A stretch of 64,000 bases of DNA. It comes from an uncultured Candidatus Saccharibacteria bacterium (GTDB lineage: Bacteria > Patescibacteriota > Minisyncoccia > Phycocordibacterales > UBA6065). The notes under the pieces are model-generated. The model saw nothing but the letters and a program-made list of their open reading frames with translations. It did not search any database and was not told the DNA's origin. This document shows positions 21,567 to 53,400 of the stretch, one piece after another. Location: assembly GCA_964368835.1 (NCBI GenBank), contig CAYJCZ010000003.1, forward strand, positions 153-64,152, in the 5' to 3' direction. Both the position numbers and the translations under genes were made by a program. The stretch's first letter is position 1. Each line of letters begins with the position of its first letter.

Positions 21567-22172
21567 ATGAATGCACGCACGGTTATCGCAAAAGCCAACA
21601 TGAATGATAGTCAGCTGAATCACATGTCAACAGAATGGAAGAGGAATACAGCTTGCCAAAACAATCCAGTCGTTGATGTTTACCATGCTCAAAAGGCATT
21701 GTATAAAACAATCGCATGGATCTTCGGTGTAATACTCGGTATTGGACTATACATCTACATCGTACCGGAAATGGACCAGGAGTTTACCTGGGAAGAGCTG
21801 GTGTGGTGGATGTCTGTGGTACTGATAGTCGCCTCTGCTGTTATGGCTGCTCTCACACACCTACGAGCTGAGTGGCCTCGCAGGAACGCAAAGTCGTTTA
21901 TCCAAACATTGTCAGTGATAGAACATCATCTGGACTATACGAATGATGGAGGCGACTTAACGTTTTGGAACCTTGGGGATTATGATGAGACAAAGTGGCG
22001 TAGAGTTGCCAAGGAGATTCTTAAACCCATGACTGATGCTGTGAAAGGACATGAGAAGTTTGCGTGGCATCAGGAAACGGCAAAGAAGCTGAAGAAAGAA
22101 TTTGAGACCACCCACAGCCGTCTGGTATGGGTTGGACTCGCAGACAGGAATCGTGATATTTATTGGCAGTAA
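21567..22172 (+). CDS. Hypothetical 2-TM protein with atypical composition
   Basis: 201 aa with two TM helices and a roughly 100-aa soluble tail. Visibly higher GC and ctg/gtg/tgg/agg codon use than its neighbours. Followed by a terminator. Confidence 0.5.
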   Translation: MNARTVIAKANMNDSQLNHMSTEWKRNTACQNNPVVDVYHAQKALYKTIAWIFGVILGIGLYIYIVPEMDQEFTWEELVWWMSVVLIVASAVMAALTHLRAEWPRRNAKSFIQTLSVIEHHLDYTNDGGDLTFWNLGDYDETKWRRVAKEILKPMTDAVKGHEKFAWHQETAKKLKKEFETTHSRLVWVGLADRNRDIYWQ

Positions 22173-23900: not shown

Positions 23901-24542
23901 CTAGAGATCGAGTAGTGCTGTACGTTCAAGAATAAGTTTAAGCGACGAAGATCGATCCTTAAGGTATTTAATAAGTGAAAGTATCTCTCGAACCGCTTCC
24001 ATCTTGCCCTCCTTATGAAGTTCACCTACCACTGCTTGCAGGAAGTTTTCAACTTTAGCTTTATCTTTCTCCTCTATAAACGGCGCCACAAATTCAAGAC
24101 GGGACTTCGGAGACATGGGTATAAATTTCCGAGCCTCACCTTTCATATCACTTTTGGCAGCTGATGCATGTGTCACTACAACCATACGCGATCGAAGTGT
24201 AGGTAAAAGAATTCGTTGTGAAGATGAAATGACAAAAAAATGAGTCCCCGGCGTTGGCTCTTCAAAAACTTTAAGAAGAGAGTTCTGCGCCTCACTCGTT
24301 ATGCTCCCAATAGTTAGAATGAAAATCTTTTTATCCCCCATCACCGGTCGAAGCGACTGCATTTCCTGAAGACCGCGACCCTCATCAATACCAAATGATT
24401 CATGATGAGCAAAATGAACATCAGGATTACCCTGGCGTGAAATCTTGAATGCATCCATGAGAAATGCTTCAAGCTCAGCTAAAACAGCAGTTTTCTCGCC
24501 TTCGATAAAGTATGCGTGATGAAGTGAGTCCTTTGAAAACAT
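23901..24542 (-). CDS. holB: Short DNA polymerase III delta-prime-like subunit (AAA+ clamp-loader subunit)
   Basis: HHAYFIEGEK...FEEPTPGTHFFVISSSQRILLPTLRSRM is the SRC-like motif of clamp-loader subunits. Only about 213 aa. Confidence 0.55.
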   Translation of the reverse strand: MFSKDSLHHAYFIEGEKTAVLAELEAFLMDAFKISRQGNPDVHFAHHESFGIDEGRGLQEMQSLRPVMGDKKIFILTIGSITSEAQNSLLKVFEEPTPGTHFFVISSSQRILLPTLRSRMVVVTHASAAKSDMKGEARKFIPMSPKSRLEFVAPFIEEKDKAKVENFLQAVVGELHKEGKMEAVREILSLIKYLKDRSSSLKLILERTALLDL

Positions 24543-24606
24543 AGTAAAGAGTATACCAAAGTAAAAAGGGCTCGACCGTAGTCGAGCCCTTTTTACAGAT
24601 ACACAG

Positions 24607-25620
24607 TTATCTTTTGGCAATGATGGTCCTCTTGTATACGTCCAAGTGTTCAAGTGCAATGCCGGTACCTTTTGCCACACAGTAGAGAGGATCTTCAGCA
24701 AGAATCGCCTTTACGCCCGTACGACGGAAAACGAGTTCAGGAAGATTTCGAAGCATAGATGATCCGCCGGTCATGATAATGCCGTGATCGATGATATCCG
24801 CAGCGAGCTCAGGAGGAGTTTCCTGGAGCACATCCTTGATCGCTTTAATCATGTCACGAAGTTCACGACCGATTGCCTTTACGATTTCGTTTGTCTTAAT
24901 TTCTGTTGAGCGAGGAAGGCCTGAAATAAAATCACGCCCTTTGATTATCATAGTGAGCTCTTCTTCAAGTGGAACCGCTGAACCAATATTGATTTTTATG
25001 TCCTCAGCAGTTTTGTCTCCAATAGCGAGATTAAAAGTTTTCTTTATATAGTCAGCGATTGCGGCATCGATTCTGTTACCTGCACATTTTACTGATGTAG
25101 ATGCAACAATTCCTCCAAGCGAGATTACGGCAACGTCTGTTGTTCCTCCACCAATATCAACAACCATATGCCCTTGAGCCTCTTGAATTGGAATGCCTGC
25201 GCCAATAGCAGCAAGAATGGGCTCCTTTACAACATAAGCACTCTTTGCACCTGCTCGAACCGCAGCTTCAACGACCGCACGACGCTCTGTTGATGTAATA
25301 CCCGCTGGAACAGATACGAGAACCTCTGGTTTCCAAATATTCCACTTACCAAGTGCCTTATCGATGAAATATCGAAGCATCGCCTCGGTCACTCGATAAT
25401 CGGCAATTACGCCGTCTTTCATGGGACGGTACGCGATGATTGACTCAGGTGTTCGACCAATCATGTTTTTCGCCTCAACACCCACAGCAAGAATTTTGTT
25501 GTCCTGCTCTGAAACAGCGACCACAGAAGGCTCATTAAGCACGATGCCTTTACCAGGCAAAAATACTAGAGTGTTTGCAGTTCCTAGATCTATTCCGAGT
25601 TTCTTTGCAAATAAAGCCAT
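24607..25620 (-). CDS. mbl: Second MreB/Mbl-family actin homolog
   Basis: MALFAKKLGIDLGTANTLVFLPGKGIV...DIGGGTTDVAV. A paralog of the mreB at 19025..20092. Confidence 0.85.
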   Translation of the reverse strand: MALFAKKLGIDLGTANTLVFLPGKGIVLNEPSVVAVSEQDNKILAVGVEAKNMIGRTPESIIAYRPMKDGVIADYRVTEAMLRYFIDKALGKWNIWKPEVLVSVPAGITSTERRAVVEAAVRAGAKSAYVVKEPILAAIGAGIPIQEAQGHMVVDIGGGTTDVAVISLGGIVASTSVKCAGNRIDAAIADYIKKTFNLAIGDKTAEDIKINIGSAVPLEEELTMIIKGRDFISGLPRSTEIKTNEIVKAIGRELRDMIKAIKDVLQETPPELAADIIDHGIIMTGGSSMLRNLPELVFRRTGVKAILAEDPLYCVAKGTGIALEHLDVYKRTIIAKR

Positions 25621-25705
25621 ATGTGGCCATACTATACGCTTTTTTGAGCCGATTGCGATAGTTGACAAGCAATTTAAACAGTAGCATTTTTTGTTTATCC
25701 ACAAC

Positions 25706-25735
25706 TTGAAATAAACATAGCGTATATGCTATACT
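25706..25735 (+). promoter_or_regulatory. Candidate sigma70 promoter for murA (TTGAAA, 18-nt spacer, TATACT)
   Basis: Lies in the divergent intergenic region about 27 nt upstream of the murA ATG. Confidence 0.35.
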
Positions 25736-25761
25736 TATTCTATTACCCCTATAGATTTACC

Positions 25762-27315
25762 ATGGCTAAAAAAGTAAACAAAGAGACCGGATCTGCCGCA
25801 CTTTCGGCAATTGGAAACATGATCGCTCGCCTTCGAGAAGACCGCCACATGACCCAGGCTGAGCTTGGCGAGAAAACTGGTACCACTCAGTCGGTTATTG
25901 CTCGTATAGAAAAAGGTGAACAGAACCTTTCGACAGAAACGCTCGCAAAACTCTCAAAGGCTCTCAACCACGAAATCATTTCTATCTCGAAAGGTGGTAC
26001 GGTGAATTTTCGTATAGAAGGAGGACGAAAGCTTTCGGGCACTATAAAAGTTAGAACTTCTAAAAATGGTGCGCTTGGCGTTATGTGCGCTTCCCTTCTT
26101 AATCACGGTACAACAACAATTAAAAACGCTCCGAAAATTGAGGAAGTGTTTCGAATTATCGAAGTTCTTGAATCGATTGGTGTAAAGGTTGCGTGGAAAC
26201 AAAATGATCTTGTAATCACACCTCCTGAAAAACTCGACCTCAAAAATATCGCAGACAAATCCGGTGCAGGAACTCGAACACGATCTTGCATCATGCTCAT
26301 CGGTTCCCTCCTCCACGTATCTAAGGACTTTAAAATTACTCAACCAGGTGGATGCAGGCTTGGTGCGCGTACAGTTAAGCCTTATTTTTACGCACTGGAT
26401 CAGATTGGTGCTCACATAGAAACTACATCGGATCACTATCACATTACTCACTCAGGCCTTAAAAAGGATCGAGAGATTATCATGGATGAAGCAGGTGATA
26501 CCGTGACTGAAACAACACTTATGGCTGCGGCGCTTATTCCAGGTAAGACAACAATTAAATTTGCTTCTGCAAACTATCAGGTTCAAGACGTTTGTTTCTA
26601 TCTTGAGCAACTCGGCGTCAAAGTAGACGGCATTGGAACATCGACGATGACGGTTCACGGCATTCAGGGACCGATTAACAAAGACGTGGAGTATTTTCTT
26701 TCAGAAGATCCTATCGAGGCAATGTCTCTTATTGCTACCGCTATCGTGACAAAATCTTCTATCACGATTGAAAGATGTTCAATCAACTTTCTCTCGCTTG
26801 AGTTATTGAAGCTCAAGAATATGGGATTTAAGTACAAAATCCTTAAGAAATACAAGGCTGATAATGGCAGGACTGATCTTGTAGATATACAGACCCTTCC
26901 TTCAAAACTTAAGGCGCTTGATGAAAAGATTCACGCTCAACCATATCCGGGAATTAATATGGATAACCTTCCCTTCTTTGCAATTATCGGCACTCAGGCA
27001 GAAGGAGAAACATTTATCCATGATTGGGTATACGAGGAACGCGCAATATATTACAAAGAACTCGACAAGATGCGCGCAGAAACCATTCTCGCTGATCCAC
27101 ACCGATTCTATGTAAAAGGTCCTACAAAATTAAAGGCAACAGAAATCGTTTGCCCTCCTGCACTTCGCCCATCGGTGATTATAATGATTGGAATGCTTGC
27201 TGCAGAAGGCACATCAGTGCTCCGAAACGTCTATAACATCAATCGAGGATACGAAGATCTTGCCGCAAGACTTAATGCTCTTGGTGCAAAGATAGAAGTA
27301 TTCCGAGATCTCTAA
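25762..27315 (+). CDS. murA: UDP-N-acetylglucosamine 1-carboxyvinyltransferase with an N-terminal XRE-type helix-turn-helix domain
   Basis: N-terminal MTQAELGEKTGTTQSVIARIEKGEQNLSTETLAKLSKAL is a Cro/C1-type HTH. The MurA body follows from FRIEGGRKLSGTIKVRTSKNGAL to ...NINRGYEDLAARLNALGAKIEV. Confidence 0.85.
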   Translation: MAKKVNKETGSAALSAIGNMIARLREDRHMTQAELGEKTGTTQSVIARIEKGEQNLSTETLAKLSKALNHEIISISKGGTVNFRIEGGRKLSGTIKVRTSKNGALGVMCASLLNHGTTTIKNAPKIEEVFRIIEVLESIGVKVAWKQNDLVITPPEKLDLKNIADKSGAGTRTRSCIMLIGSLLHVSKDFKITQPGGCRLGARTVKPYFYALDQIGAHIETTSDHYHITHSGLKKDREIIMDEAGDTVTETTLMAAALIPGKTTIKFASANYQVQDVCFYLEQLGVKVDGIGTSTMTVHGIQGPINKDVEYFLSEDPIEAMSLIATAIVTKSSITIERCSINFLSLELLKLKNMGFKYKILKKYKADNGRTDLVDIQTLPSKLKALDEKIHAQPYPGINMDNLPFFAIIGTQAEGETFIHDWVYEERAIYYKELDKMRAETILADPHRFYVKGPTKLKATEIVCPPALRPSVIIMIGMLAAEGTSVLRNVYNINRGYEDLAARLNALGAKIEVFRDL

Positions 27316-39215: not shown

Positions 39216-39246
39216 GGCCGGTCCCGAAGGGACCGGCCTTTTGTTT
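39216..39246. terminator. Bidirectional intrinsic terminator between convergent operons
   Basis: GGCCGGTCCC-gaa-GGGACCGGCC flanked by AAAACAAAA and TTTTGTTT. Confidence 0.7.
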
Positions 39247-41542
39247 ACTGTCGAATCACTGTTCCACTACCAAGATTGTAAAGCTGTTTTGCTTCTGCCG
39301 CTGTAACGCCTCTATTATATATACGTAAATCATCCATTACACCCGGGAACATGTATGTACCCACCAGACCTTCCTGATACCCAATATCAAGATTGTCTGT
39401 TCCGCTTACAACCTGAGTTCCATAAGTATCCGTCTGAATTTCTGCACCATTTAAGTAACCTTTTATGGCACTACCGGTTCTTGTATACAAAACGTGATAC
39501 CACGTATTAAGTGCTATACCGCCAGGAAAACTAAAGGCTGACGCTCCCGCTCCATTGAGCCAAAGAGTGATACTTTCAGAGTAACCCGGATTATAAATAT
39601 ACAAACCGTATTCGGCCTTGTTCGGACCTTTATTTATTATGTTTATATAAGGATCACCTACACGGGAGAGCTTGAACCAGACTGAAAAAGTAAAATCAGT
39701 TAATGTCTCAAGACTCGAGTTAGAGGGTACGGTAATGTAATCATCTACACCATCAAACTTAAGACCCTGAGATATCTTACCTGTCGTAGGCGCGGTCGCT
39801 TGGGTCATGTTCGTCAAGGTACCATCATTACCTCGTCCTGATCTGTCATATAGAGATCCAGCCGTCGCACTTGTCCAACCAACATCAGAACCGTTGAAGG
39901 GCCAGTAGCCTACAAGACCGTTTATGACCTTCGATTTTTCAGCACCACCGACTGTTGCCACACCAGAAGTATAAAGGCTTCTGACCTCTGCATTACTTAA
40001 TTGTCTTGTATACACTCGAACGTCGTCAATTGAACCCGTAACATACTCTCCAGCAACAGCTGCAAATCTTCCAACATTCCATGTAGTATCGCCGGAATAA
40101 TAAGCGCCTGCTTGTCGCGAACCAACCTCTACACCATCTTGATACACTCTCTGCATGAGGGACGAATCCAGAGTTACAACTATATGGGTCCACCGATTAG
40201 CGATATCCGTTAACGTTACATCGACATCATCATTGAACAAAGCAAATCTGACGGAGGTGTTCGATAACAATCTCAGATGTATTGCTTTATTTGAATTTTG
40301 TTCAGTACCCAATGAAAAATAAGTTTCATTTGCAGTGTAGTTGGTTCTAATCCATGCGCTTATAGTAAAGGGTGTGCCAGCAAGATTTACTCCGGAACCG
40401 GAAACATAATCATTAACTCCATCAAGTGATACAGCTTTACCAAATTTACCGTTTGTCCATGTTGCACCCGATAAGCTTCCGCTATTATTATTTCCTGAAA
40501 AATCTCCAGCAACTGTTCCCGACCCTTCATTCATAGACCAATAACCAACAAGCCCTAGGTTGTTTGCAGGCTTCGACAAAGTTACCCGTGTTGCAGCAGC
40601 GCCAGGTGTATAAGTTATAACAATTATTCCTTGGGCAGAATCATTACCAGATGATGCATATGCTCCACCGGAAGACCCTCCTCCATACAATCCGCCTGCT
40701 CCTCCTGTACCCGAGCTCTGACACGTACCTCCTGCTCCACCACCAGAACCATGAGTTGCGTCCCACTCTGTACCCGCACCTCCGTTTCCTGCTGTACCTC
40801 CGGCATACCCAATTCCACCTCCACCTCCACCATCCACTCCATGATTTCCAGGAGATGTGAATCCTACAGACGCACCTCCACCAACCCCCAGGTAGTTATT
40901 ACCTCCAGCACCACTGTTAAAGTCACCAGGACCGCTGGTACCCGCAGAACCTCCACCACCACCTCCACCTCCAGCACCACCATAAGTTAATCCGACCCCT
41001 CCGGCGCCACCAACACCATTTGGCCCTCCAGCACCACCAGCTCCTCCAGGACAGCTTGTGTCGTTACTTGCCCCACCAGCTCCACCAGAATACTTAACAT
41101 CTCCAACACCAGATGCAGATGCGCCTCCTGGTCCCGTATAACTTCCCCCTTTTGCTCCAACCACCACCGCGGTTCCACCAATTGACGCACAGTTAGAAGT
41201 TGAATTACAGAGGTAGGTGTCTTCACCGTCCACACCGTCAGCACCAGAACTTCCCGCCCCCACATTTATACCAACACTACCACCCGGTGTGAGGGTAACA
41301 TTTGTTGATTTTGAATACGCTCCACCCCCTCCTCCAAAGTCAGCATTTGCCCCACGAGCACCCGCACCAATCACCTCGATAGTATTATTTGAATTATTCC
41401 AATCACTCGGCACCGACCATGAAGTGGCGCCAGTATCCGTGAGAAAAATCACCGTTGCATCCGCATGGACTTCAGCCACAGGTAACAAACCTAATGGCAG
41501 GATGAGTGATATCTGAAGCAATAGTGAGAAGGTCTTTTTCAT
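39245..41542 (-). CDS. Secreted protein with an N-terminal glycine-rich region and two LamG/concanavalin-A-like domains
   Basis: Signal peptide. About 300 aa of GGxGG-type Gly-rich repeats. Two LamG-like units with VGYWSMNEGSGT...DDVRVYTRQLS and VGYWPFNGSD...DDLRIYNRGVT. Confidence 0.7.
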   Translation of the reverse strand: MKKTFSLLLQISLILPLGLLPVAEVHADATVIFLTDTGATSWSVPSDWNNSNNTIEVIGAGARGANADFGGGGGAYSKSTNVTLTPGGSVGINVGAGSSGADGVDGEDTYLCNSTSNCASIGGTAVVVGAKGGSYTGPGGASASGVGDVKYSGGAGGASNDTSCPGGAGGAGGPNGVGGAGGVGLTYGGAGGGGGGGGSAGTSGPGDFNSGAGGNNYLGVGGGASVGFTSPGNHGVDGGGGGGIGYAGGTAGNGGAGTEWDATHGSGGGAGGTCQSSGTGGAGGLYGGGSSGGAYASSGNDSAQGIIVITYTPGAAATRVTLSKPANNLGLVGYWSMNEGSGTVAGDFSGNNNSGSLSGATWTNGKFGKAVSLDGVNDYVSGSGVNLAGTPFTISAWIRTNYTANETYFSLGTEQNSNKAIHLRLLSNTSVRFALFNDDVDVTLTDIANRWTHIVVTLDSSLMQRVYQDGVEVGSRQAGAYYSGDTTWNVGRFAAVAGEYVTGSIDDVRVYTRQLSNAEVRSLYTSGVATVGGAEKSKVINGLVGYWPFNGSDVGWTSATAGSLYDRSGRGNDGTLTNMTQATAPTTGKISQGLKFDGVDDYITVPSNSSLETLTDFTFSVWFKLSRVGDPYINIINKGPNKAEYGLYIYNPGYSESITLWLNGAGASAFSFPGGIALNTWYHVLYTRTGSAIKGYLNGAEIQTDTYGTQVVSGTDNLDIGYQEGLVGTYMFPGVMDDLRIYNRGVTAAEAKQLYNLGSGTVIRQ

Positions 41543-41563
41543 TCCTTTTATTCTACCAAACTA

Positions 41564-43681
41564 TTACCTAGCAAGGTTATAAAGCTGCTTTATTTCCGAC
41601 TCCGAAAGTACTCTGTTATATATCCTGAAATCATCAATAGTGCCTGGATGGTAGTACACAATACTCGATGCATTGTTATTAAAGGCCCCAATCAACATAT
41701 TAGAAAAGCTAGTTGGGCTGTCTGACGACGCCTCGGAAGCCGCAAGCACACCGTCAAAATATATAGCCTTATAGTTACCGCCATTTCCTGCCGAAACAAG
41801 TGTCACATATGTCCATTTACCTATATGGGCCGCATAGCTAGTTGAAATTCTTCCCGAACCACTCAAGTCACCATAATCCCAATACACACTCCCATCACTC
41901 CAAGGCACGTGGGCCTGAAAACGAATAGTGTCATTTGTATCTGCTCCAAAAGCAGATGCACCATCACCCGGCGTTGACGCTACATAATTCCAAAAAGAAA
42001 CAGTAACCGGACCTCCCAACCATGAGAACGTTGAGGCGTTTACATAATCATTTACTCCATCAAACTTCAAAGCTTGACCGAGTTTACCAATAGCTGTTGT
42101 CGTGGCAGTTTGACCAAATAAATTTCCGTGCTTACCTTGTCCACTCTTGTCTCTTACGTTTGGGTTCATATCCGCTCCGTCGAAGGTCCAATGCCCTACC
42201 AAACCGGATGAAAGTGATCCCCGGGAGGTGTTTTGGGTACTATTTAATTTTGAACCGCCCATTGCATACAATTGCTTTATTTCATTTGCTGATAACGCAC
42301 GGCTATATGTTCGTGCATCATCCAGGTACCCGTGAAAATCAGAACTCAATATTGTCTCAGTTGTTGGCGTGGTTGGCGTTGTTACAGCTGATAGTCCTGT
42401 ATCCACACCGTTTGCATAAAGTCTCCATGTACCTGCATTCCGAACCGCCACAATATGCGTCCACTCTCTTGTTGGCATCTGATACGTTGAATTCAAAACA
42501 TTACATGATATTCCACCGATCAAAATATCAAGCTTATTACCCGTACCACAAGCACTACCGTCGATAATCAAACCGTAACCATTTGCACCTGTGTTTCCGT
42601 TATACAAAATTACTTGCAAACCACTCGTGTCGAGCCAATATGCCCAAATAGAAAGTGTTACGTTATCAAGTTGGGTCATAACAACCGACGACACTTTAAC
42701 ATCATCATCCGCATCGACACTCAGCGCTTGCCCTATTTTACCTGGCACTGAGGTTGTGGAAGTTTGACCTGTGATATTCGCATGCTTACCCTGTCCACTC
42801 AAATCTCTAACATTGGGCACCATGTCTTTACCATCAAAAGTCCAATGTCCAGTTAACGAAGATTGAAGTCCGGTAGGAGAACCTGACGAAGAAACCTTTG
42901 TTCGATTCGAATTATACAATCCCTTTATTTCACCTAGCGAAAGTGCTCGGTTATATATGCGAATATCATCAAGTTTTCCATTGTAATTGAAATACGTCGC
43001 AGGCCCTGTGTGATAGCGCGCACCGAGTGATACGTCTACATTTTCATGAGGAAACGTAAAAGGGCGTGTACCCGCTTGATCAACCCACGTCTCCTGAGCG
43101 CCATTCAAATATATTTCAGGGTTGTTTGAAGCGTCCACCACAACCACCGCGTGATACCACGTACCACAACTAACAGCAGTACTTCCACGACCGGCTTCAC
43201 CATATATATCTCCGCCAACTGGTCCTCCCACAAAAGATACATACCCACCATCAAGCTGAAGCTGATATTGAATACTGGTATCACTCGATCTTTTCGCAAG
43301 TATCGATCCAGACGAAGCAGCACAATTAAACCAGGTGCTTATCGTAAAAGGACCGTTTGTAAAATCCAACGCATGCCCTCCTCCGCTTGAACTTTTGACC
43401 CTTACCACATCATCAGAGCCATCAAATAAAAGTGCCTGCCCAAGAGGTCCTAAAACTGACGTTGTAGCAGTAAAACTTTCCAAAATACCATTGTGCCCGT
43501 ATCCACTACTATCACCAACATCCTGTAACATTTTTCCACCATCAAAGGTCCAGTGACCTACAAGCCCTAGCTGATTTGATGGTTTGTTTAGAGTCGCAGC
43601 AAAAACGTCCTCATAGAAAAAGAAACCCATGAGTACTATCGGAAAAAATATCCAGAAATGTATGTGGTTTTTTATTTTCAT
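41564..43681 (-). CDS. Secreted protein with three tandem LamG/concanavalin-A-like domains
   Basis: Signal peptide. Three repeats of (L)VGHWTFDG...DDIRIYNRALS with the conserved W and Y-H core. Confidence 0.7.
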   Translation of the reverse strand: MKIKNHIHFWIFFPIVLMGFFFYEDVFAATLNKPSNQLGLVGHWTFDGGKMLQDVGDSSGYGHNGILESFTATTSVLGPLGQALLFDGSDDVVRVKSSSGGGHALDFTNGPFTISTWFNCAASSGSILAKRSSDTSIQYQLQLDGGYVSFVGGPVGGDIYGEAGRGSTAVSCGTWYHAVVVVDASNNPEIYLNGAQETWVDQAGTRPFTFPHENVDVSLGARYHTGPATYFNYNGKLDDIRIYNRALSLGEIKGLYNSNRTKVSSSGSPTGLQSSLTGHWTFDGKDMVPNVRDLSGQGKHANITGQTSTTSVPGKIGQALSVDADDDVKVSSVVMTQLDNVTLSIWAYWLDTSGLQVILYNGNTGANGYGLIIDGSACGTGNKLDILIGGISCNVLNSTYQMPTREWTHIVAVRNAGTWRLYANGVDTGLSAVTTPTTPTTETILSSDFHGYLDDARTYSRALSANEIKQLYAMGGSKLNSTQNTSRGSLSSGLVGHWTFDGADMNPNVRDKSGQGKHGNLFGQTATTTAIGKLGQALKFDGVNDYVNASTFSWLGGPVTVSFWNYVASTPGDGASAFGADTNDTIRFQAHVPWSDGSVYWDYGDLSGSGRISTSYAAHIGKWTYVTLVSAGNGGNYKAIYFDGVLAASEASSDSPTSFSNMLIGAFNNNASSIVYYHPGTIDDFRIYNRVLSESEIKQLYNLAR

Positions 43682-44244: not shown

Positions 44245-47200
44245 TTAAGGAGTTTCAGCTGGGACTTCGGGTACTGGAGCCGGATCTACAACCGGCGGCT
44301 CCACTAAAGGTGTTTCCTCTACTGGCGGCACAGGCTCCTCTTCTATGACTGGTGGTGTTGTCGTGCCGTTGTCCCCCGTGTCTCCATTATTATCTATTAC
44401 ATCTGGGGTTGTTGTTCCTGTATCACCACCTTCATCACCATCATTATTTGGAGGTATCGCAGGTGTTGGAACGTATGACCCACACTCTCCCGGTTCAGTT
44501 CTCATAATTCCTGCTTCCATATAAATACATGTTGGTAGGCCGCTTGATCTATCAAGAACTGTGACTCCAGACTTTGCGAGATTGTCTATGTCGCCAACCC
44601 TGAGAGTCTTTGTTTGTATTGTGTCCGCCTCGACTGTTTTGATATAAGCGATATTTGCAGTTAAGCTTTCAGCCACTACAGAAACAAATGTTGCAATCGC
44701 ATTTTCTATTTTTGCTCCGAGTGACTCAATCCAGCCTGACACAATCGCAATAGTTGTAGAAGCAGTTGTTGTTGCAGTTGATGAAGCGAATTCGTCTGTT
44801 GTAGAAGCAATCACTCGTTCAAATCCATTTGCTTCGGCATATGTTTCGAGCGCTGCAAGTCTACCTTCAATACCAAGCATTCGATTCTCTAGATTTGTTA
44901 CAGATAGATTAAGTGATTTAATCGCTTCGATTATAAACGGTGTAAATCCGCCGTACGCTACGCTCTTGAGGCCGTTTGTTCCTGTTGTTACAAGCTCAGG
45001 GAACACAGCCTCTACGTCCTGTGCAATAAATCCGTAACGAAGTGAGTCGCTTGTATCTTCTTTATTCCACCTGAATGAAACTGCCTGAAGCTGCGCCATT
45101 CTCTGGAGAGTTTCATCTGTTGCCACATTCTGTATATCCTTTTTAAGAGATCTGTCTGAAGTACATGTCCATGTTGTTGATGTAGGGTTTATTTCGCAAT
45201 ATCCATTTGCATCTTCAAATCGCACAGGTGCTTCGTCTGCTGTTGTATAGACATGTAATTTCCTCTGTGGAGTCGAGGTGCCGATGCCAACTCCTGAATC
45301 CTGAATTCCACCAGAACCGTTTGCTTCTGCGTATACAGTCAATATTGGATTGCTATCAATCTGCGCGCTATAGCTTTGTACTGTGTTTGCTGCAGCAGAA
45401 GATGAAACTGGCAAATCTGACCAGCTAACGATTCCGGCATCTGTATCAAATGACAGTGATCCAGAAAGATTAAGGCCGTTTATTGATGTAATTCCAGATG
45501 AGTAATCATAGACAAGCGCGCCGCTTCCAACATCAAGACCTCCGGCTATAGTTGATGTTGCTGTTGTGGATGTTGCGGTGAAGTTTCGAGAAACAGTCTC
45601 ACCTGCCACTGAAAGCTTTGCGTATGGAGATGTTGTACCGACACCAACTTTTCCAAACGCATCAATTATAAACGCAGTAGAAGTTGCTGTTCCGGCTGTA
45701 GATGAAGCTACAACAAAGAGTGGTGCTGAGCTACTTGTGGTTGCCTGCACTGTTAGCTTTGCATATGGAGACGTCGTGCCAACACCAACATTTCCAGAGC
45801 TATCAACCGCAAGAATAACATCAAGTGGATTTGTGTTTGCACCTGAGTAGAAATAAGTATCGCCACCAGCAACATTTCTAATCTCAAGCGACCCTACACG
45901 ATGAGCACCGGCTGAAGCCGTGGCCATGAAATCAATTACCGCCTTATCTACTCCTCCGTCGCTCAGCAAGATGTGTGGCCCTCGAGTTGTTGCAGATCCA
46001 ATTGATCCAAGTTCAATTACGGGTATTCCTGAGCCCACAATCTCAAGAAGGCTTGTTGCGGTAGTTGTTCCGATTGCAAGGCTTCCTGCTATGTATGCGT
46101 TACCTGTGGTTGTTGCGCCCCCGTTGATGGTGAGTCCACCCGCCTGAGCACCCGAACCAATCGTAGATGAAGCATTCAAAATAAGTCCTCGGGTTGTTGT
46201 TGGAGCGAGATAGCCGTTTCCTTGTACTGAGAAATCTCGGAACTGTGAAGCATAGTAATTTGAGGACGTAGTCGCCCATGTACCCCCCACACCTCCTTCA
46301 TCAGTACCGCAAGAAAGCACTCCGTTTGCATCAGTGTCTATAGTGTTACATCCCACAAGACCTGTGAAAGCCACAGTACCTGTTGCTGTAAGGTTTCCTC
46401 CTATATATGCAGAGCCTGCAGTAGAGAGTTTTGCAAATGGTGACGTGGTGCCAACACCAAGATTGCCGTGAATAAATGTAGTTCCATCTCCAAGAATCGA
46501 GAATCGAGTACTTGTAGCGGTTGATACCTTAAAGAGTCCAGCGGTAGTAAGTGAATGAATTGTATCGAATTCGTATGCACTTCGTTCCACAGGATCAGAG
46601 GTAAGAAGCATGGTGTTATCTCGAGCTGGATGGAAGTAGAGCAAGTCAATACCGTTTGTATGTACATCAGTAATTACATTTGAACCTAAATAGAATGCTT
46701 CTGACATGTCCCCTTCATTTTCTTCGGTAGCGAGTGCCCCTATTCCTATGTCGAAATACGTTGACGTTGCTGCGCGTTCAGTGGAGAGCGAAAGACCCGC
46801 ATTGGCAGCCTTTGAAAATATATAGCTATCCGTGTTACTTCCAAGAGCAACATTGTCGCCTGTAACATTCAATCGGCTTAAAGTATCTGTCACTGTAGAC
46901 TGTACAGTTTGGTTCGTGGCTACGCTTGCAGGATCGTACACACCGAACAAAAATCCATTTACATTTTTCTCGAAACTGCCAGGAACCATTGTCTTCATGC
47001 TAGCAATCGAGTATTTGTATGCTGACGAAGCCTCACCCATGGTTTGATCCATAAATGATTTTGTGGTTGACCCCATAGTGACTGATCCATTTCCATAGAC
47101 ACCGAATTGCTCATATCCACCTGATCTCAAAGAGGTAAGACGCATGTCTGGGTAAAGAATTTCTTCTGCACTTGAGTCATATCCATCCCACGCTAAAGCC

Positions 47201-50200
47201 CCAGATGTGTCCACTGTAAATGCTGTACCCTGTGTAAACACATTAACCGGAGTCACGCTTGATACTACAGAAAGTTTTGCGTATGGAGATGTTGTACCAA
47301 TACCAACATATCCAACTGATCCTGCTGCACCGAGGACAGTAAGTTTTGCAGCATCAGAAGGTCCGATCATGAGAGAGTTTGCAACATCGTTTGTAATGTC
47401 TGCGCCCAAGATTGTGGTTGATGCAGCAGATGCTGTATTTTTGTAACCAATGACTGTTGAGCTTGCTGCGGCAGTAGTGTAATTTTGGTATCCAAAGACA
47501 CTTGCAGAGTCACTAAATACGTCAGACGCGTTGTCATAGCCAAATACAGAAGCTCGTTTACCTTTAACATAGTTACTGTATCCAACAAGAGTTGCGTATG
47601 ATGATCCAACATCAACGTAATTGCTTGCACCCAAGAGAGTTGCGAATGGACTATCCGTATAATCTACAACGTTAGACAGACCAATTAGAGTTGAACTTGC
47701 TGCTACAGAGTAGTTGTTGTAACCAAAGAGGGATGAATAGGCGCCCGACTGTTCAGAGCCAAATGAAGAATTTTCACTTTGTACTTCTACTGACTTAAAT
47801 CCACGCGCACCACCTGTTGCTTGTCCTATGAGAACCTCACTGTTAGAACCTAATAGTTTGAGCTTGCCTGTGATTGAAGCAGTATTAATATTTGGATCAA
47901 AGTAGAACTCAGCAGTTGTGGTTGAGTTAGAGCCAATAGCAACAACATCGCTCGTATTGTTTGGATAGTTTATGAGAGTGCCTGAAACTGTCGATGTTGT
48001 TGTTGACCATGAACCCCCGCCAGAACCTCCACCGGCTCCACATGCTGAGCCCGTGCCTGTGACCTGGCCGAGTGAGTTAACTTGAAGACACTGAGTAGAG
48101 CCGGTGATAGATGTGATAGCGAGGTTGGTTGTAGATGCTGTGCCTGTTGCAGTGAGGTTTCCTCCTATATATGCAGAGCCGGCGACAGAGAGGAGTGCGA
48201 ATGGAGATGTGGTACCGATTCCAACGTTGCCTGTTATATAAGATACTGCAGATGATGAAGATGAAGTATTAAACCATGGGCCAACAGGAGCGTTTAATCG
48301 TGCAATGTAATTTTTATTAAGATTCGCATTTGAAGTTATAGGCGCGCGATAGATTACGTTTGTATATGAACTTCCGTTATATCCACCAAAGAGGTACACA
48401 TTATCTCCAATAACTGAAACTTGTGATACATCTAGGTTTCCAGGAATCGTGTATCCCGTATCAGTCCAGCTTGTTGGATTTGAAACTGGTGCGCGGTAAA
48501 TCACGTTTGTGTATGAACCATTGTAGCCACCAAAGAGATACACATAATCGCCGACGACCGCAATCTGAGATCGATTGAGGGCGGCCGGAAGTGTTGCTCC
48601 CGTATTAGTCCAGCTAGTTGGATTTGAAACTGGTGCTCGATATATAACACCACTTGCACTTCCCGTGTCTCCGCCAAAGAGGTATACATAATCGCCAAGA
48701 ACAAGACCTTGAGAATAACCTAGATTTCCTGGAAGTGTTGCTCCCGTATTAGTCCAGCTTGTTGGATTTGAAACTGGTGCGCGGTAAATTACATTCGTAA
48801 CACTTCCATTGTCTCCTCCATAAAGATAGATATAGTCTCCAATAACAAGTACTTGTGAGTTACCAAGATTTCCTGGGAGTGTTGCACCTGTATTAGTCCA
48901 GCTTGTTGGATTTGAAACTGGTGCGCGGTAAATCACGTTTGTATATCCTGAACCGTATCCTCCAAAGAGATACACATAATCTCCAATTACAAGCACCTGA
49001 GAATTCTGAAGAATTCCAGGGATTGTTGCTCCAGTGTTTACCCAGCTTGTTGGGTTTGAAACTGGTGCGCGATATATAGTACTTGCAACACTCGAGTTAT
49101 TTCCTCCAAAGAGATACACGTAATCACCAATTACAGCTGACTGTGATTCACCAAGATTTCCTGGGAGTGTTGCGCCGGTGTTTACCCAGCCACCTTCAGT
49201 AAGTTGATATCGTACAGATGCAGCTGATGAAATCGGTGTCCAATTAGAAGCAAGAATTGTCGATGATGAGTACGCATTTCTAAATTCAATAACTCCCCCG
49301 TTCTCACGAATACCATAGCCACCAGAACCTGACTGGAATGCTGAACCAAAGTTTACATATCGGCCCGTGCCCTCCAAATAAAGATTTCCATATGCAGTAA
49401 TGCTTGATGTTGCAGCAGGAGTTGTTGTACCAATTCCAAGTCGTGAGGCAAAATAGGCATTTCCTGTGGTAGTAGAGTTAGTTGTTGTTGCATTCACCAA
49501 AGTTACGTTAGCAAGAGTTGAAGATGCGGTGAGAATAAGTCCTCGTGTAGTCGTCGGTGCAAGATATCCGTTTCCCTGAACAGTGAATGCAGAGAAGTTT
49601 GAAGCATAGTAGTCAGAAGATGATGTAGCCCATGATGATGAACCAGCTCCGCAAGCAGAGCCTGTACCTGATACTTGGCCGAGTGAGTTAACTTGGAGAC
49701 ACTGTGTAGAGCCTGTGATAGATGTGATAGCGAGGTTGGTTGTAGATGCGGTGCCTGTTGCTGTGAGGTTTCCTCCTATATATGCATTACCTGCGACTGA
49801 TAGAAGTGCGAATGGTGATGTGGTACCAGCACCAATACCTGTTGCGCTAACAGTGAGTGTTGGATTAGCTGTGTATCCCACCTGGAAGGTATCTGCAGAT
49901 GAGTTGGTGAACCCCTTACCGAATGCGGTTGAGAGAGCTGCGGTTGCGTTTACGTTGTCTCCAAAAGCGAATGAACCGCTGCCTGTAGACGTAACAGCTC
50001 CTGCATTTGCATAACCTGCAGCAAATGATCCGTCTCCTGAAGACGTCAAATTCCTAAATGCATATCCAAATGCAACCGATCCGTTTGCTGACGCACTCAA
50101 TGTTGCAGGAGCAGCAATTCCAACAGCAACTCCATATGCAAGTGATCCACTACCAGAGGAAAGAATTGATGCGTTTCCTGAGCCAAGAATACCGCTTGCA

Positions 50201-53200
50201 ACACCTCCAGCAAAACCACCTCGAATTGTAGTTTGTATTGAGCCTGTACCTCCGAGTGTTCCTGATGCAGCTCCGTAAACCATCGATCCCTCAACAGCGC
50301 TTACCACCGCAGAACCTGTAGTGGTACCCACAGCGAATGCTGACCGGCCGGCATAGACATTTTCTTGACCAACCACTACTCCACCAGCAAATGATGAGGT
50401 TGCTGTTGTAGATGTTGCGGTGAAATTATCTGCTACAACTTGACCACTTACTGACAATTTTGCGTACGGAGAAGTAGTACCGATACCGACGTTTCCTCCA
50501 AAATATGCACTTCCGGTCGTTGTTGCTGTTCCGTTGATTGTGAGTCCTCCTGTAGCAACTCCACTTCCAATAGTTGAAGAAGCAGAAACTATGAGACCAA
50601 GTGTAGTGGTTGGACGAAGAGTTCCTGAAACAACGTTCCAATCTCGGAATTGTGACGCGTAGTAATCAGAAGATGTTGTTGCCCATGAGCCAGAGCCTGA
50701 TCCACAAGCTGAACCTGTGCCTGATACTTGTCCGAGTGAGTTAACCTGGAGACACTGAGTTGAGCCAGTGATTGAGGTGATTGCGAGGTTGGTTGTAGAT
50801 GCGGTGCCTGTAGCTACAAGGTTTCCTCCGATGTATGCTGAGCCGGCGACGGATAGTTTTTCGAATGGAGAGGTTGTAGCAATACCGACGTTGCCTAAGT
50901 TTGTGATTATAAATCTATTTCCATTATCCACTGTATTATCATCTGAGCTAACCATAAACAATGTAGATGCGCCCCCTGCACCAGTAACTTCTAATGCTGC
51001 ATCTGGACTAGCATCATTAATACCCATCAAACCATTCACATCCAAAGTCACAACACTCGCATCCGTAGCATTTCCTATAGAAAATCTTCCGCTATTACTT
51101 ACCCAATTTGACCATCCAATTCCAGATGCCTCGTTATAAATTCCAAGACCCCACGAGTTTTCATCATTCTGGGATATAACAAAATTTGCAGGAAATCCCA
51201 AGAAACTACCAGAACCAGGTCCATCAATTACAACTGATCCTAAAACCGGAGTTGTACTTCCAATTCCAATATTGCTTGCAAAATACGCTCGACCTGTAGT
51301 TGTAGCAGCACCATTAACAGTCAAGCCCTCTATCCCATTTCCAATCGTAGATGAAGCATTAACAATCAAACCTCGAGTTGTCGTAGGTGCAAGATATCCA
51401 TTTCCCTGAACAGTGAATGCATTGAAGAGAGATGCGTAGTTGTTTGCTGATGTGGTTGAGAATGCTGAAATGTTCTGCTGTGTGAGCCAGTAGTCAGCAG
51501 ATGTAGTTGAGTAGAAGTATCCCTTGTTGAGGGTATCGAGGAATGTCTGTACTCGTGAGTTCTGGTAGTAGAGGTTAGAACCTTCAGCAACGTCTGTAGT
51601 GAGAAGTCCGAGAGATGATGTTGCGATCTGCTGGTATGTACCACCTGCGTATGAACCGATGAGGATTCCTGCAGCACTTGGGTTAGCTATACCTGTACCT
51701 CCTCGAGATGCGGAGAGGGTGCCTGTCCATGTAGGAGTGAATGTGTGAATGTCACTTGCAGAAGTAATGGTAAGACCAATATTAGTGTCAGATGAAGTTG
51801 CAAACACCTGTCCTGCACCGCTCTGGTTTGAAGAAAATTCACCTCGCAATGCGGTAATGCCACCGCCCGCTCCCGCGTCAGTACCGCAAGAAAATTGTCC
51901 TGTGGTTGAATTCCAAATTAATTTATCTGATGATCCAGAACAAGAAGAAAGTCCTGCGCCACGAACAGTACCCTCTATATATAGAGCAGTTGTCGTAGCA
52001 TTTGTACCTGTAGCATTTAAAAATGTAATATTCGCAAAATCTACATTGTTAGAAAATGTAGTTGCGCCAGTGACTGTTACCGTTCCCGCAAGGGTTGGGT
52101 TTGTAAGCGTGAGATCTGTTGTATCAACAGAATTATTAATTATTGTTGTTCCTCCGCCGCCACCGCCCGAAGATGTTCTCTGACTTAATCGATCAGAAGT
52201 AGTTCTGATATTTTGCAGTAAGAGATCTACCCGTGAACTTACTGTTGCGAGATCCGTTTGAAATGAGTTTTGAAGTAAATCAATTCTCTGATTGAAATCC
52301 AAAGAAACTAAATCCGCAACCTGACGAGCACTGAAAGAGTACTGCAAAGAATTACTTTCAACTGGTGAGCCTACCGAACTTGATGTGTTGAAGTTCTGAA
52401 CAATTACTTCAGGTCGCACAACCACCGATTCCTCTGACTCTGAAGCTTGGTTATTACCACTAACAACAAAATCAGAAACAGGGATCCTGTTGGTCGATGT
52501 TGCTGGTTTGTCAGTTTTTCCAATATTAGCAAGTTTCTCTTTAGCACTATTCAAAGTTGAACCTGCAGGCACCTGAGCAACTTCAACCTTCGGTTTGCCG
52601 CTACCAAAAACAAGTGTCCATCCCTTATTGAAAAGTGGATTTATAAACTCGTACACACCGACCGCTGATGCTTCGAGCACCCCTTCTGTCACTACACCGG
52701 CATTTGAAACAGCCGCCATAAAATCGTTTGATGAAAGAACTGGCGATCCTGTTTCAGACGCAGACTGTATTCCCGCTGCAACTTCAGTAGAAAAATTAAA
52801 TATTCTTTCTTTGAGAAGACCTAGTGATTTAAAAGCTGAACCAATATTTTTCGAATTTACAAAATTAAAACTGCTGACAGCAATGAGACAAATTAAAGCG
52901 AGCGCAACAAATTTTTTCGTGTATGAAGGTTTACCATACTCGGATACAGTAATAGATTTTTTAACTTCTTGTACAGGAACAGCTGTAGGTTTTACAACTG
53001 GAGTAGCAATAATAATTTTTTCAGGCTTCACAGATACCTTCTTGAGCTCTGGCAAAAGTCCCCTGCTATCTGAATCATACTTTAGTAATTTTTCAAGGAA
53101 AACTTTAGGAGCATCAATTGCCTGAGCATCCGAGATCGCCTTATGAATCAAGGGCTTTGATTCCTTCTGTGACAAAGATTGGGATTTCAATGAAGACAGG

Positions 53201-53400
53201 AGGTTAGCACCTTTGTCCGCAGTTATGTGGTAGTTGAGAATTGAGGATTCACAGACAAACCAGAGCCGACCTACCTTTGTTGCCTCAATTTTTCCATCTC
53301 GGATGAGTTGCCCCACATAGTCCTGAGTATAGCTACAGGCTTGGGCAGCTCGTCTAGACGAGATGAACTTTTTTCCATCAATAATGAGTTGATCGCTCAT
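44245..53400 (-). CDS. Giant 3051-aa protein: N-terminal excisionase/MerR-type HTH, single TM helix, extracellular repetitive fibre with a 6-blade Kelch-like propeller, C-terminal peptidase S74 intramolecular-chaperone domain, coiled-coil and Pro-rich tail
   Basis: N-terminal SSRRAAQACSYTQDYVGQLIRDGKIEATKVGRLWFVCESSI matches HTH_17. TM helix KKFVALALICLIAVSSFNFV. At least five dispersed copies of a VAGSAYIGGNLTATGTASTTNLAITSITGSTQCLQVNSLGQV(S/T)GTGSACG unit. Six GDYVYLFGG...VIYRAPVSNPTSW Kelch repeats. CTSDRSLKKDIQNV...LQAVSFRWNKED...GFIAQDVEAVFPELV matches the S74 domain. C-terminal TPPVIEEEPVPPVEETP. Confidence 0.8.
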   Translation of the reverse strand: MSDQLIIDGKKFISSRRAAQACSYTQDYVGQLIRDGKIEATKVGRLWFVCESSILNYHITADKGANLLSSLKSQSLSQKESKPLIHKAISDAQAIDAPKVFLEKLLKYDSDSRGLLPELKKVSVKPEKIIIATPVVKPTAVPVQEVKKSITVSEYGKPSYTKKFVALALICLIAVSSFNFVNSKNIGSAFKSLGLLKERIFNFSTEVAAGIQSASETGSPVLSSNDFMAAVSNAGVVTEGVLEASAVGVYEFINPLFNKGWTLVFGSGKPKVEVAQVPAGSTLNSAKEKLANIGKTDKPATSTNRIPVSDFVVSGNNQASESEESVVVRPEVIVQNFNTSSSVGSPVESNSLQYSFSARQVADLVSLDFNQRIDLLQNSFQTDLATVSSRVDLLLQNIRTTSDRLSQRTSSGGGGGGTTIINNSVDTTDLTLTNPTLAGTVTVTGATTFSNNVDFANITFLNATGTNATTTALYIEGTVRGAGLSSCSGSSDKLIWNSTTGQFSCGTDAGAGGGITALRGEFSSNQSGAGQVFATSSDTNIGLTITSASDIHTFTPTWTGTLSASRGGTGIANPSAAGILIGSYAGGTYQQIATSSLGLLTTDVAEGSNLYYQNSRVQTFLDTLNKGYFYSTTSADYWLTQQNISAFSTTSANNYASLFNAFTVQGNGYLAPTTTRGLIVNASSTIGNGIEGLTVNGAATTTGRAYFASNIGIGSTTPVLGSVVIDGPGSGSFLGFPANFVISQNDENSWGLGIYNEASGIGWSNWVSNSGRFSIGNATDASVVTLDVNGLMGINDASPDAALEVTGAGGASTLFMVSSDDNTVDNGNRFIITNLGNVGIATTSPFEKLSVAGSAYIGGNLVATGTASTTNLAITSITGSTQCLQVNSLGQVSGTGSACGSGSGSWATTSSDYYASQFRDWNVVSGTLRPTTTLGLIVSASSTIGSGVATGGLTINGTATTTGSAYFGGNVGIGTTSPYAKLSVSGQVVADNFTATSTTATSSFAGGVVVGQENVYAGRSAFAVGTTTGSAVVSAVEGSMVYGAASGTLGGTGSIQTTIRGGFAGGVASGILGSGNASILSSGSGSLAYGVAVGIAAPATLSASANGSVAFGYAFRNLTSSGDGSFAAGYANAGAVTSTGSGSFAFGDNVNATAALSTAFGKGFTNSSADTFQVGYTANPTLTVSATGIGAGTTSPFALLSVAGNAYIGGNLTATGTASTTNLAITSITGSTQCLQVNSLGQVSGTGSACGAGSSSWATSSSDYYASNFSAFTVQGNGYLAPTTTRGLILTASSTLANVTLVNATTTNSTTTGNAYFASRLGIGTTTPAATSSITAYGNLYLEGTGRYVNFGSAFQSGSGGYGIRENGGVIEFRNAYSSSTILASNWTPISSAASVRYQLTEGGWVNTGATLPGNLGESQSAVIGDYVYLFGGNNSSVASTIYRAPVSNPTSWVNTGATIPGILQNSQVLVIGDYVYLFGGYGSGYTNVIYRAPVSNPTSWTNTGATLPGNLGNSQVLVIGDYIYLYGGDNGSVTNVIYRAPVSNPTSWTNTGATLPGNLGYSQGLVLGDYVYLFGGDTGSASGVIYRAPVSNPTSWTNTGATLPAALNRSQIAVVGDYVYLFGGYNGSYTNVIYRAPVSNPTSWTDTGYTIPGNLDVSQVSVIGDNVYLFGGYNGSSYTNVIYRAPITSNANLNKNYIARLNAPVGPWFNTSSSSSAVSYITGNVGIGTTSPFALLSVAGSAYIGGNLTATGTASTTNLAITSITGSTQCLQVNSLGQVTGTGSACGAGGGSGGGSWSTTTSTVSGTLINYPNNTSDVVAIGSNSTTTAEFYFDPNINTASITGKLKLLGSNSEVLIGQATGGARGFKSVEVQSENSSFGSEQSGAYSSLFGYNNYSVAASSTLIGLSNVVDYTDSPFATLLGASNYVDVGSSYATLVGYSNYVKGKRASVFGYDNASDVFSDSASVFGYQNYTTAAASSTVIGYKNTASAASTTILGADITNDVANSLMIGPSDAAKLTVLGAAGSVGYVGIGTTSPYAKLSVVSSVTPVNVFTQGTAFTVDTSGALAWDGYDSSAEEILYPDMRLTSLRSGGYEQFGVYGNGSVTMGSTTKSFMDQTMGEASSAYKYSIASMKTMVPGSFEKNVNGFLFGVYDPASVATNQTVQSTVTDTLSRLNVTGDNVALGSNTDSYIFSKAANAGLSLSTERAATSTYFDIGIGALATEENEGDMSEAFYLGSNVITDVHTNGIDLLYFHPARDNTMLLTSDPVERSAYEFDTIHSLTTAGLFKVSTATSTRFSILGDGTTFIHGNLGVGTTSPFAKLSTAGSAYIGGNLTATGTVAFTGLVGCNTIDTDANGVLSCGTDEGGVGGTWATTSSNYYASQFRDFSVQGNGYLAPTTTRGLILNASSTIGSGAQAGGLTINGGATTTGNAYIAGSLAIGTTTATSLLEIVGSGIPVIELGSIGSATTRGPHILLSDGGVDKAVIDFMATASAGAHRVGSLEIRNVAGGDTYFYSGANTNPLDVILAVDSSGNVGVGTTSPYAKLTVQATTSSSAPLFVVASSTAGTATSTAFIIDAFGKVGVGTTSPYAKLSVAGETVSRNFTATSTTATSTIAGGLDVGSGALVYDYSSGITSINGLNLSGSLSFDTDAGIVSWSDLPVSSSAAANTVQSYSAQIDSNPILTVYAEANGSGGIQDSGVGIGTSTPQRKLHVYTTADEAPVRFEDANGYCEINPTSTTWTCTSDRSLKKDIQNVATDETLQRMAQLQAVSFRWNKEDTSDSLRYGFIAQDVEAVFPELVTTGTNGLKSVAYGGFTPFIIEAIKSLNLSVTNLENRMLGIEGRLAALETYAEANGFERVIASTTDEFASSTATTTASTTIAIVSGWIESLGAKIENAIATFVSVVAESLTANIAYIKTVEADTIQTKTLRVGDIDNLAKSGVTVLDRSSGLPTCIYMEAGIMRTEPGECGSYVPTPAIPPNNDGDEGGDTGTTTPDVIDNNGDTGDNGTTTPPVIEEEPVPPVEETPLVEPPVVDPAPVPEVPAETP
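45570..50900 (-). repeat. Dispersed intragenic near-identical repeat units (fibre unit of about 110-200 nt, at least 5 copies) inside the giant gene
   Basis: For example 48100-48240, 49720-49860 and 50770-50890 all share gaggttggttgtagatgc.gtgcctgt.gc....aggtttcctcc.at.tatgc... at close to 90% identity. Confidence 0.6.
48250..49260 (-). repeat. Six tandem roughly 145-nt Kelch-blade repeats inside the giant gene
   Basis: The block gttggatttgaaactggtgc.cg.ta.at recurs at about 48469, 48759, 48899, 49040 and elsewhere. Protein-level repeats are almost identical. Confidence 0.6.

Follow-up and report, generated by a model that had tools for sequence, protein, structure and literature searches.

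Why would MurA, the fosfomycin target that catalyzes the essential, first committed step in making peptidoglycan, carry a DNA-binding domain? We investigated this question in a 64,000-nt window (the whole stretch of DNA analyzed here) from an 894-kb, 99.9%-complete genome of the Patescibacteria (Paceibacteria). The original prediction had described a MurA directly joined to an N-terminal XRE-family helix-turn-helix (HTH) domain, and had proposed either autoregulation or a moonlighting role that ties cell-wall synthesis to transcription. Our comparative analysis suggests that this MurA is bifunctional and probably represses its own promoter by binding an 18-bp operator.

The fusion gene occupies positions 25762..27315 of the forward strand as a single uninterrupted frame of 517 codons plus stop, with no internal stop or frameshift, and the genome has no other gene of the EPSP fold. 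An ATG at 25726 would open a longer frame; the orthologue alignments begin at the ATG at 25762. Profile searches recovered both parts of the protein. The Pfam family HTH_3 (PF01381) matches aa 21–69 with an E-value of 2.8e-14 and 53.3 bits (cut-off 23), identifying a domain of the XRE/Cro-C1 type, and HTH_31 and HTH_26 likewise exceed their Pfam cut-offs. The EPSP_synthase family (PF00275) matches aa 86–501 with an E-value of 2.8e-44, spanning profile positions 2–414 of 417. The predicted joining of an XRE-type HTH to a complete MurA is thus confirmed, and the N-terminal segment is neither a separate reading frame created by a frameshift nor a sequence that the HTH profiles fail to recognize.

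We modeled the structure with AlphaFold2, employing an alignment of 41 orthologues (47–82% identity), and obtained a mean pLDDT of 89.4. The model contains four N-terminal helices (aa 7–27, 32–39, 43–50 and 58–68; pLDDT 81–94) that form a compact helix-turn-helix bundle at aa 7–68 (25780..25965, forward strand), with the recognition helix at aa 43–50 (25888–25911, forward strand). A flexible linker of about 11 residues follows at aa 69–79 (25966..25998, forward strand), where pLDDT is 56 and falls below 50 at aa 74–76, and the MurA domain begins at residue 80 and extends to residue 517 (25999..27312, forward strand). The HTH peptide quoted in the original prediction is present exactly as given. 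The length of roughly 85 residues assigned to the HTH was too generous, as the helices end at residue 68 and the enzyme starts at residue 80.

The enzyme half retains the features of a catalytically competent UDP-GlcNAc enolpyruvyl transferase. Residues 81 to 512 align with solved MurA structures (32 MurA sequences; the best is 5ujs, with an E-value of 2.5e-54), and all 44 PDB matches begin at residue 81 or later, leaving the first 80 residues structurally uncovered. The E. coli residues K22, C115, R120, D305 and R397 correspond to K101, C198, R203, D401 and R469, which are invariant across the 41 orthologues; the codon of the catalytic Cys198 lies at 26353–26355 (forward strand). The protein scores 319 bits against the NCBIfam MurA subfamily NF006873 (cut-off 297) and 308 bits against the TIGR01072 MurA equivalog, under its cut-off of 392.7, which together place it in a divergent MurA clade. 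Its identity to ordinary Patescibacteria MurAs is approximately 35%. Based on the conserved residues, the protein is predicted to be active; the 99.9%-complete genome offers no other EPSP-fold gene and has an MreB gene beside this one, which indirectly suggests that the fusion serves as the cell's housekeeping MurA.

We next consider how widely the fusion occurs. We sampled the phylum evenly with 401 genomes. A fused HTH-MurA is present in 44 of them (approximately 11%), the window's genome included; 24 have a MurA of the same clade without room for an HTH (43–58% identity), and about 300 have MurA of the ordinary kind alone (about 35% identity). Nearly all genomes with the fused form show a single MurA match, and the fusion is therefore their housekeeping enzyme as well. 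A maximum-likelihood phylogeny of MurA domains (84 rows, with 8 ordinary MurAs as the outgroup) separates this clade with full support and places HTH-less proteins on its basal branches. The HTH state changes at least 8–10 times on this tree, a pattern that fits one gain of the HTH followed by repeated losses, with the direction depending on the outgroup root. Five HTH-less genomes were searched for a split form, and no close free-standing HTH orthologue turned up; the only matches are generic XRE proteins with 24–41% identity, none of which is located within 1.5 kb of murA.

The fused architecture also extends beyond the phylum. Among 1.84 billion representative proteins searched, fused forms were recovered down to 33% identity, including a 52%-identity representative of a 246-member cluster, whose named members are from Nonomuraea (Actinomycetota) and are annotated either as MurA or as 'helix-turn-helix domain-containing protein'. 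Most Patescibacteria MurAs are less similar to the window protein than this Nonomuraea protein is, which suggests a horizontal transfer between the two phyla, in either direction.

If the HTH is a regulator, where does it bind? The original prediction had placed a TTGAAA-N18-TATACT promoter just upstream of the gene, and we recovered it as the only sigma-70-like site found by a consensus scan of 25400–25900. The predicted promoter (25706..25735, forward strand) matches the consensus at 10/12 positions, with TTGAAA at 25706–25711, an 18-nt spacer and a −10 box at 25730–25735 that is preceded by TG (TG-TATACT). One such match per 500 bases is about what shuffled sequences yield (mean of 1.2), and the promoter call consequently leans mainly on its conservation in relatives. 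The original prediction had proposed looking for a palindromic operator in the 141-bp intergenic region at 25621–25761, and a candidate is present: CATAGCGTATATGCTATA, an 18-bp imperfect palindrome with 7/9 symmetric pairs (25716..25733, no strand assigned), fills the spacer between the −35 and −10 boxes and overlaps the −10 box. We predict that this palindrome is the operator from its conservation and its position.

We tested this prediction on 77 loci from other genomes, comprising 52 fused orthologues (42–81% identity) and 25 HTH-less genes of the same MurA clade. The 260 nt before each aligned start were searched for the best match to TATAnC-N6-GnTATA. Among the fused loci, 40 of 52 score at least 9/10 at the same promoter position and 25 of 52 score 10/10, while only one of the 25 HTH-less loci reaches 9/10 and none reaches 10/10. 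Random windows from the same loci have a mean score of about 6.8 and almost never attain the observed score. The remaining 12 of 52 fused loci score 7–8 of 10 and may use diverged sites. The information content is 1–2.3 bits inside the 18 bp, with its peak at the symmetric positions C6 and G13, and is about 0.1 bit in the 30-nt flanks.

The position of the palindrome within the promoter suggests how it would act. In the relatives, a TTGAC ends 2–5 nt before the palindrome, and the −10 box takes up the final 4 nt of the palindrome and extends 2 nt past it; it therefore starts at palindrome position 15, leaving ordinary spacers of about 16–19 nt. A palindrome that fills the spacer and overlaps the −10 box has the classic geometry of repression by promoter occlusion. 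In the mechanism that we propose, the same polypeptide that converts UDP-GlcNAc and PEP into enolpyruvyl-UDP-GlcNAc would also be an autorepressor. Two HTH domains, most likely presented by a dimer, would bind the palindrome's two half-sites, and the protein bound over the spacer and the −10 hexamer would exclude RNA polymerase. As MurA accumulates, it would shut its own promoter, which would hold the committed entry step of the peptidoglycan pathway in homeostasis. We infer DNA binding, dimerization and the sign of regulation from these comparisons.

The sign of regulation could be the reverse. MerR-type activators also bind between the −35 and −10 boxes, and the window's spacer of 18 nt is one over the optimum, such that the HTH could bind the palindrome and activate transcription by a MerR-like reshaping of a sub-optimal spacer. 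However, the domain is of the XRE/Cro type rather than MerR, the relatives' spacers are ordinary in length, and XRE proteins that sit over a −10 box are typically repressors. Given the domain type and the site geometry, activation instead of repression is unlikely, and we assign it only a slim chance.

Autorepression further requires that the palindrome is the HTH's own site. The palindrome's right half doubles as the −10 box, and therefore part of its conservation is promoter conservation. From this coincidence, it could be argued that the palindrome belongs to the promoter itself or is read by another factor, with the HTH acting elsewhere or as a global regulator of many genes; other XRE proteins are encoded, and generic matches are found in relatives. 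However, the left half (TATAnC), which plays no part in the promoter, is conserved as strongly as the right one, and information peaks at the symmetric C6 and G13. Moreover, the palindrome is missing in the HTH-less kin of the same MurA clade. The count of sites in the genome also weighs against action elsewhere or on many genes, and we consider this reading about as improbable as activation.

The core of the motif, ATAGC-N6-GCTAT, occurs exactly once in the 894 kb of the window's own genome. About one occurrence is expected by chance genome-wide, and consequently it is the location within the 141-bp region that counts. We found no second credible site in this genome, and none was seen at glmS; the next-best candidates match 14/18 positions and fall within coding sequence or at its edge. 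Across five complete relatives that were scanned, the exact motif is unique and positioned at the murA promoter in two (G131 and G396); another (G383) has the murA site plus an extra exact copy inside a longer, 38-bp palindrome, and in another (G063) the only exact copy sits inside a gene. Matches with one mismatch in these five genomes are barely more numerous than in a reversed-pattern control. Overall, the protein looks like a single-target autoregulator. The proposed autoregulation is thus well supported by comparison, through a conserved promoter palindrome with a genome-unique core, while the wider moonlighting role beyond its own promoter is left unsupported.

The sequence of the recognition helix and the sequence of the half-site vary together. 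In the window's subclade, the helix TTQSV(I/V)ARIE is found with the half-site TATAGC, and in other clades TSQSA..R.E is found with TATA(T/C)C. Four loci have a diverged recognition helix, and the motif is absent there. This tracking amounts to approximately one evolutionary event plus four exceptions, and is consistent with a helix that reads the half-site rather than strong evidence for it. On the MurA tree, 8 independent contrasts between loci with and without the HTH can be drawn; the palindrome follows the HTH in about 6 of them, with one in the opposite direction and one showing no difference. Related genomes are not independent samples, and an independent-pairs test on these contrasts has the right direction but is underpowered and not significant (median p of 0.125).

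The domain itself bears on whether DNA is bound at all. Eight HTH residues are invariant across the 41 orthologues (R25, Q32, Q43, R48, E50, G52, Q54 and N55), including the start of the recognition helix and the DNA-contacting positions typical of XRE domains. The mean pairwise identity is 0.55 for the HTH versus 0.57 for the enzyme part, indicating that the HTH is under purifying selection. Conservation within the linker is only 0.31, yet the spacing from N55 to G87 remains 30–32 residues in 41/41 orthologues. Alternatively, the HTH may no longer bind DNA and instead serve MurA as a module for protein interaction, localization or stability. Its repeated losses (at least 8, depending on the root) without loss of MurA show that it is dispensable for catalysis and would suit such a module. 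Nevertheless, invariant DNA-contacting positions, a matching palindrome that accompanies the domain, and HTH domains that outlast catalysis all argue for a regulatory role, and we regard a non-DNA-binding HTH as slightly less probable still than the two preceding alternatives.

The proteins in which the HTH outlasts catalysis are seven distant relatives with 31–39% identity (P0129, P0130, P0141, P0142, P0148, P0167 and P0205). All keep a significant HTH_3 match and the EPSP fold; the Cys loop is gone from every one of the seven, and the other catalytic residues are variously lost. A query of the 400-genome sample of the phylum with P0205 returned only an ordinary fused MurA, and no paralogue of this dead type. 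The simplest explanation for keeping a MurA fold beside a conserved HTH once catalysis is lost is a regulatory role of the fold, for example in ligand sensing or oligomerization. These dead-enzyme relatives suggest an evolutionary path from an enzyme to an enzyme-regulator and then to a pure regulator.

Returning to autorepression by the intact enzyme, the palindrome requires two HTH domains. MurA enzymes are generally described as monomers, and the dimer is therefore putative; a two-copy homodimer prediction with residues 14–513 scored 0.08 (mark of 0.42), which counts neither for nor against a dimer. The constant linker length and the dead-enzyme relatives that keep both the HTH and the fold are hints that the two halves are coupled. 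Through such coupling, it is possible, but somewhat short of an even bet, that operator binding responds to the ligand state of the MurA part (UDP-GlcNAc, PEP or, as feedback ligand, UDP-MurNAc), in the manner of other trigger enzymes. More speculatively, and on balance doubtful, the MurA fold could act as a metabolite sensor whose open or closed state, set by these ligands, changes the operator affinity of the HTH, with the dead HTH-MurA-fold proteins being pure ligand-responsive transcription factors. If so, the cell would read its peptidoglycan-precursor status directly at the murA promoter, and these proteins would form a previously undescribed family of regulators built on the enolpyruvyl transferase fold.

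We also examined the reality of the fusion at this locus. The best 120 database homologues (72–100% identity) come from Paceibacterota/Parcubacteria MAGs produced by many studies, are named just 'MurA', and contain both domains in 120/120 cases. A 4273-nt contig from a separate sequencing run is identical over 25667–26400, a segment that includes the promoter, the start codon and the domain junction, and no indels were found at the locus in the independent metagenome sequencing runs that were compared. A strain variant from a different study has 19 coding differences, all of them synonymous changes at third codon positions, of which 13 are within aa 28–80; its −35 box, palindrome and −10 box are unchanged, and 3 bases differ just downstream. 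An artefact in which a frameshift, misassembly or gene miscall joined an upstream HTH gene to murA is excluded by the unbroken frame, the identical independent contig without indels, the architecture shared by more than 120 homologues from many studies, the constant linker length, and the lack of conservation of usable start codons in the linker. Such an internal start, which would yield an HTH-less MurA, was likewise rejected as a feature of the family; the window has a usable GTG (V81) behind AGGTG, and usable linker starts are present in only 3/44 loci.

Among known systems, HTH-MurA comes closest to the trigger enzymes BirA (biotin ligase and repressor of the bio operon), PutA (proline dehydrogenase and put repressor) and NadR. 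Like them, it joins a metabolic enzyme to a DNA-binding domain within a single polypeptide that would be aimed at its own gene's or pathway's promoter, and its operator, here predicted by comparison, overlaps that promoter. Unlike them, its enzyme is the MurA of peptidoglycan synthesis, its DNA-binding domain is XRE/Cro-type, and the only target suggested by sequence is its own promoter. BirA and PutA are also defined by ligand control of DNA binding, whereas such control in HTH-MurA is conjectural.

Each half of the protein can be compared with its own family. Like canonical MurA (EC 2.5.1.7; E. coli 1uae and the Campylobacter-type 5ujs), HTH-MurA has the full two-domain fold, the catalytic Cys loop and the Lys/Arg/Asp/Arg set, but it differs by about 80 extra N-terminal residues, composed of the HTH plus linker, and by its divergent clade. 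Its short helical HTH, with a Gln opening the recognition helix, resembles Cro/C1 and XRE repressors such as 434, P22, SinR and HipB, as does its palindromic, promoter-overlapping operator; the P22 c2 operator is similarly about 18 bp. The difference is that the effector or oligomerization part is an entire enzyme, about 440 residues long, with the dimer being putative. A related arrangement is found in the fusions of an XRE HTH to shikimate kinase (PRK08154, 'anaerobic benzoate catabolism transcriptional regulator'), where an XRE HTH is also N-terminal to a metabolic enzyme fold, but the enzyme partner is another one. The window's HTH matches PRK08154 weakly over aa 5–75 (E-value of 4e-8), with 33 bits that are far under the cut-off of 204.

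Known controls of MurA act through proteolysis, protein partners and UDP-MurNAc feedback. A literature search returned no paper that describes MurA fused to an HTH or acting as a transcription factor, and the Streptomyces murA2 papers examined make no mention of an HTH. The databases contain thousands of HTH-MurA proteins under generic names. If it represses itself, HTH-MurA would provide a minimal homeostat for the flux of cell-wall precursors. Its hosts include bacteria with genomes of about 0.9 Mb and very few regulators, and also Actinomycetota.

Two further roles for the upstream region were tried and rejected. A divergent MreB/Mbl gene (24607..25620, reverse strand; Pfam MreB_Mbl, E-value of 6.5e-135) likely starts at the ATG at 25620, with the predicted operator about 100 bp upstream of its start. 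Control of mreB from this operator is unsupported, as neither this neighbor nor the upstream sequence is kept in the relatives. Reading the palindrome as an RNA hairpin fared no better; the fold, at −7 kcal/mol across 57 nt (z of −2.35), is weak and has no Rfam match, and the palindrome is located upstream of the predicted transcription start. The genes around HTH-MurA are housekeeping genes: beyond the divergent MreB/Mbl gene, the upstream side contains a gene similar to the pol III delta' subunit, RRF and an M50 protease, and the downstream side contains PriA, a deformylase and a formyltransferase.

Orthologues of the fused protein are also found in Actinomycetota, where one homologue cluster from the sequence search (represented by P0122) has 246 members, the named ones belonging to Nonomuraea spp. 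(for example, WP_214634277.1). These Actinomycete orthologues share 52% identity with the 517-residue window protein, compared to about 35% for most Patescibacteria MurAs. Because the Actinomycete proteins are closer than most MurAs of the Patescibacteria, the sequence comparison suggests that the fusion has moved by horizontal transfer between Actinomycetota and Patescibacteria.

Inside the clade of fused MurAs, the enzyme seems to have shed its HTH on at least eight occasions (loci L008, L035, L041-L060 and L076-L078 of other genomes), and the promoter palindrome, TATAnC-N6-GnTATA, appears to be gone as well. One of these HTH-less loci, L046, nevertheless retains a palindrome-like site that scores 9/10. 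In the complete genome of a relative (G383), an exact second copy of the operator motif is located in an intergenic region (L088:2035-2080; G383:C1, around 990248), where it is embedded within a longer, near-perfect 38-bp palindrome.

Seven metagenomic HTH-MurA-like proteins from outside the window (P0129, P0130, P0141, P0142, P0148, P0167 and P0205; 31–39% identity) all retain a significant HTH_3 match and the EPSP fold, but in every one the catalytic Cys loop is gone, with R203, R469 and K101 additionally missing in combinations that vary by protein. These distant homologues may be pure transcription factors that descended from an enzyme-regulator. In the window alone, AGGTG precedes an in-frame GTG (25990-26004) that encodes V81, with which the MurA part begins, and is a possible internal start for an HTH-less MurA. 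Among relatives such a start is unconserved (3 of 44).

Elsewhere in the window, no Pfam family is hit at E ≤ 1e-5 by a 201-aa ORF on the forward strand (21567-22172), which sits between the upstream cluster and the gene for the M50 protease. A reverse-strand gene (23901-24701) partially matches the DNA_pol3_delta2 profile over about 215 aa and looks like a minimal clamp-loader subunit, akin to the delta' of DNA polymerase III; as called, its ORF overlaps the adjoining RRF ORF. Two giant predicted proteins, also on the reverse strand, are probably surface or attachment proteins of the type usual in episymbiotic Patescibacteria: one of 3051 aa (44245-53400) with Kelch repeats and a Peptidase_S74 intramolecular-chaperone domain, and one of 1860 aa (57270-62852) with LamG, fn3, Big and two PG_binding_1 domains. 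Adjoining their genes on the same strand, a neighbouring pair (39245-43681) encodes proteins of 765 and 705 aa with many Laminin_G_3 (concanavalin-like lectin) domains, and may be part of the same surface-protein cluster.
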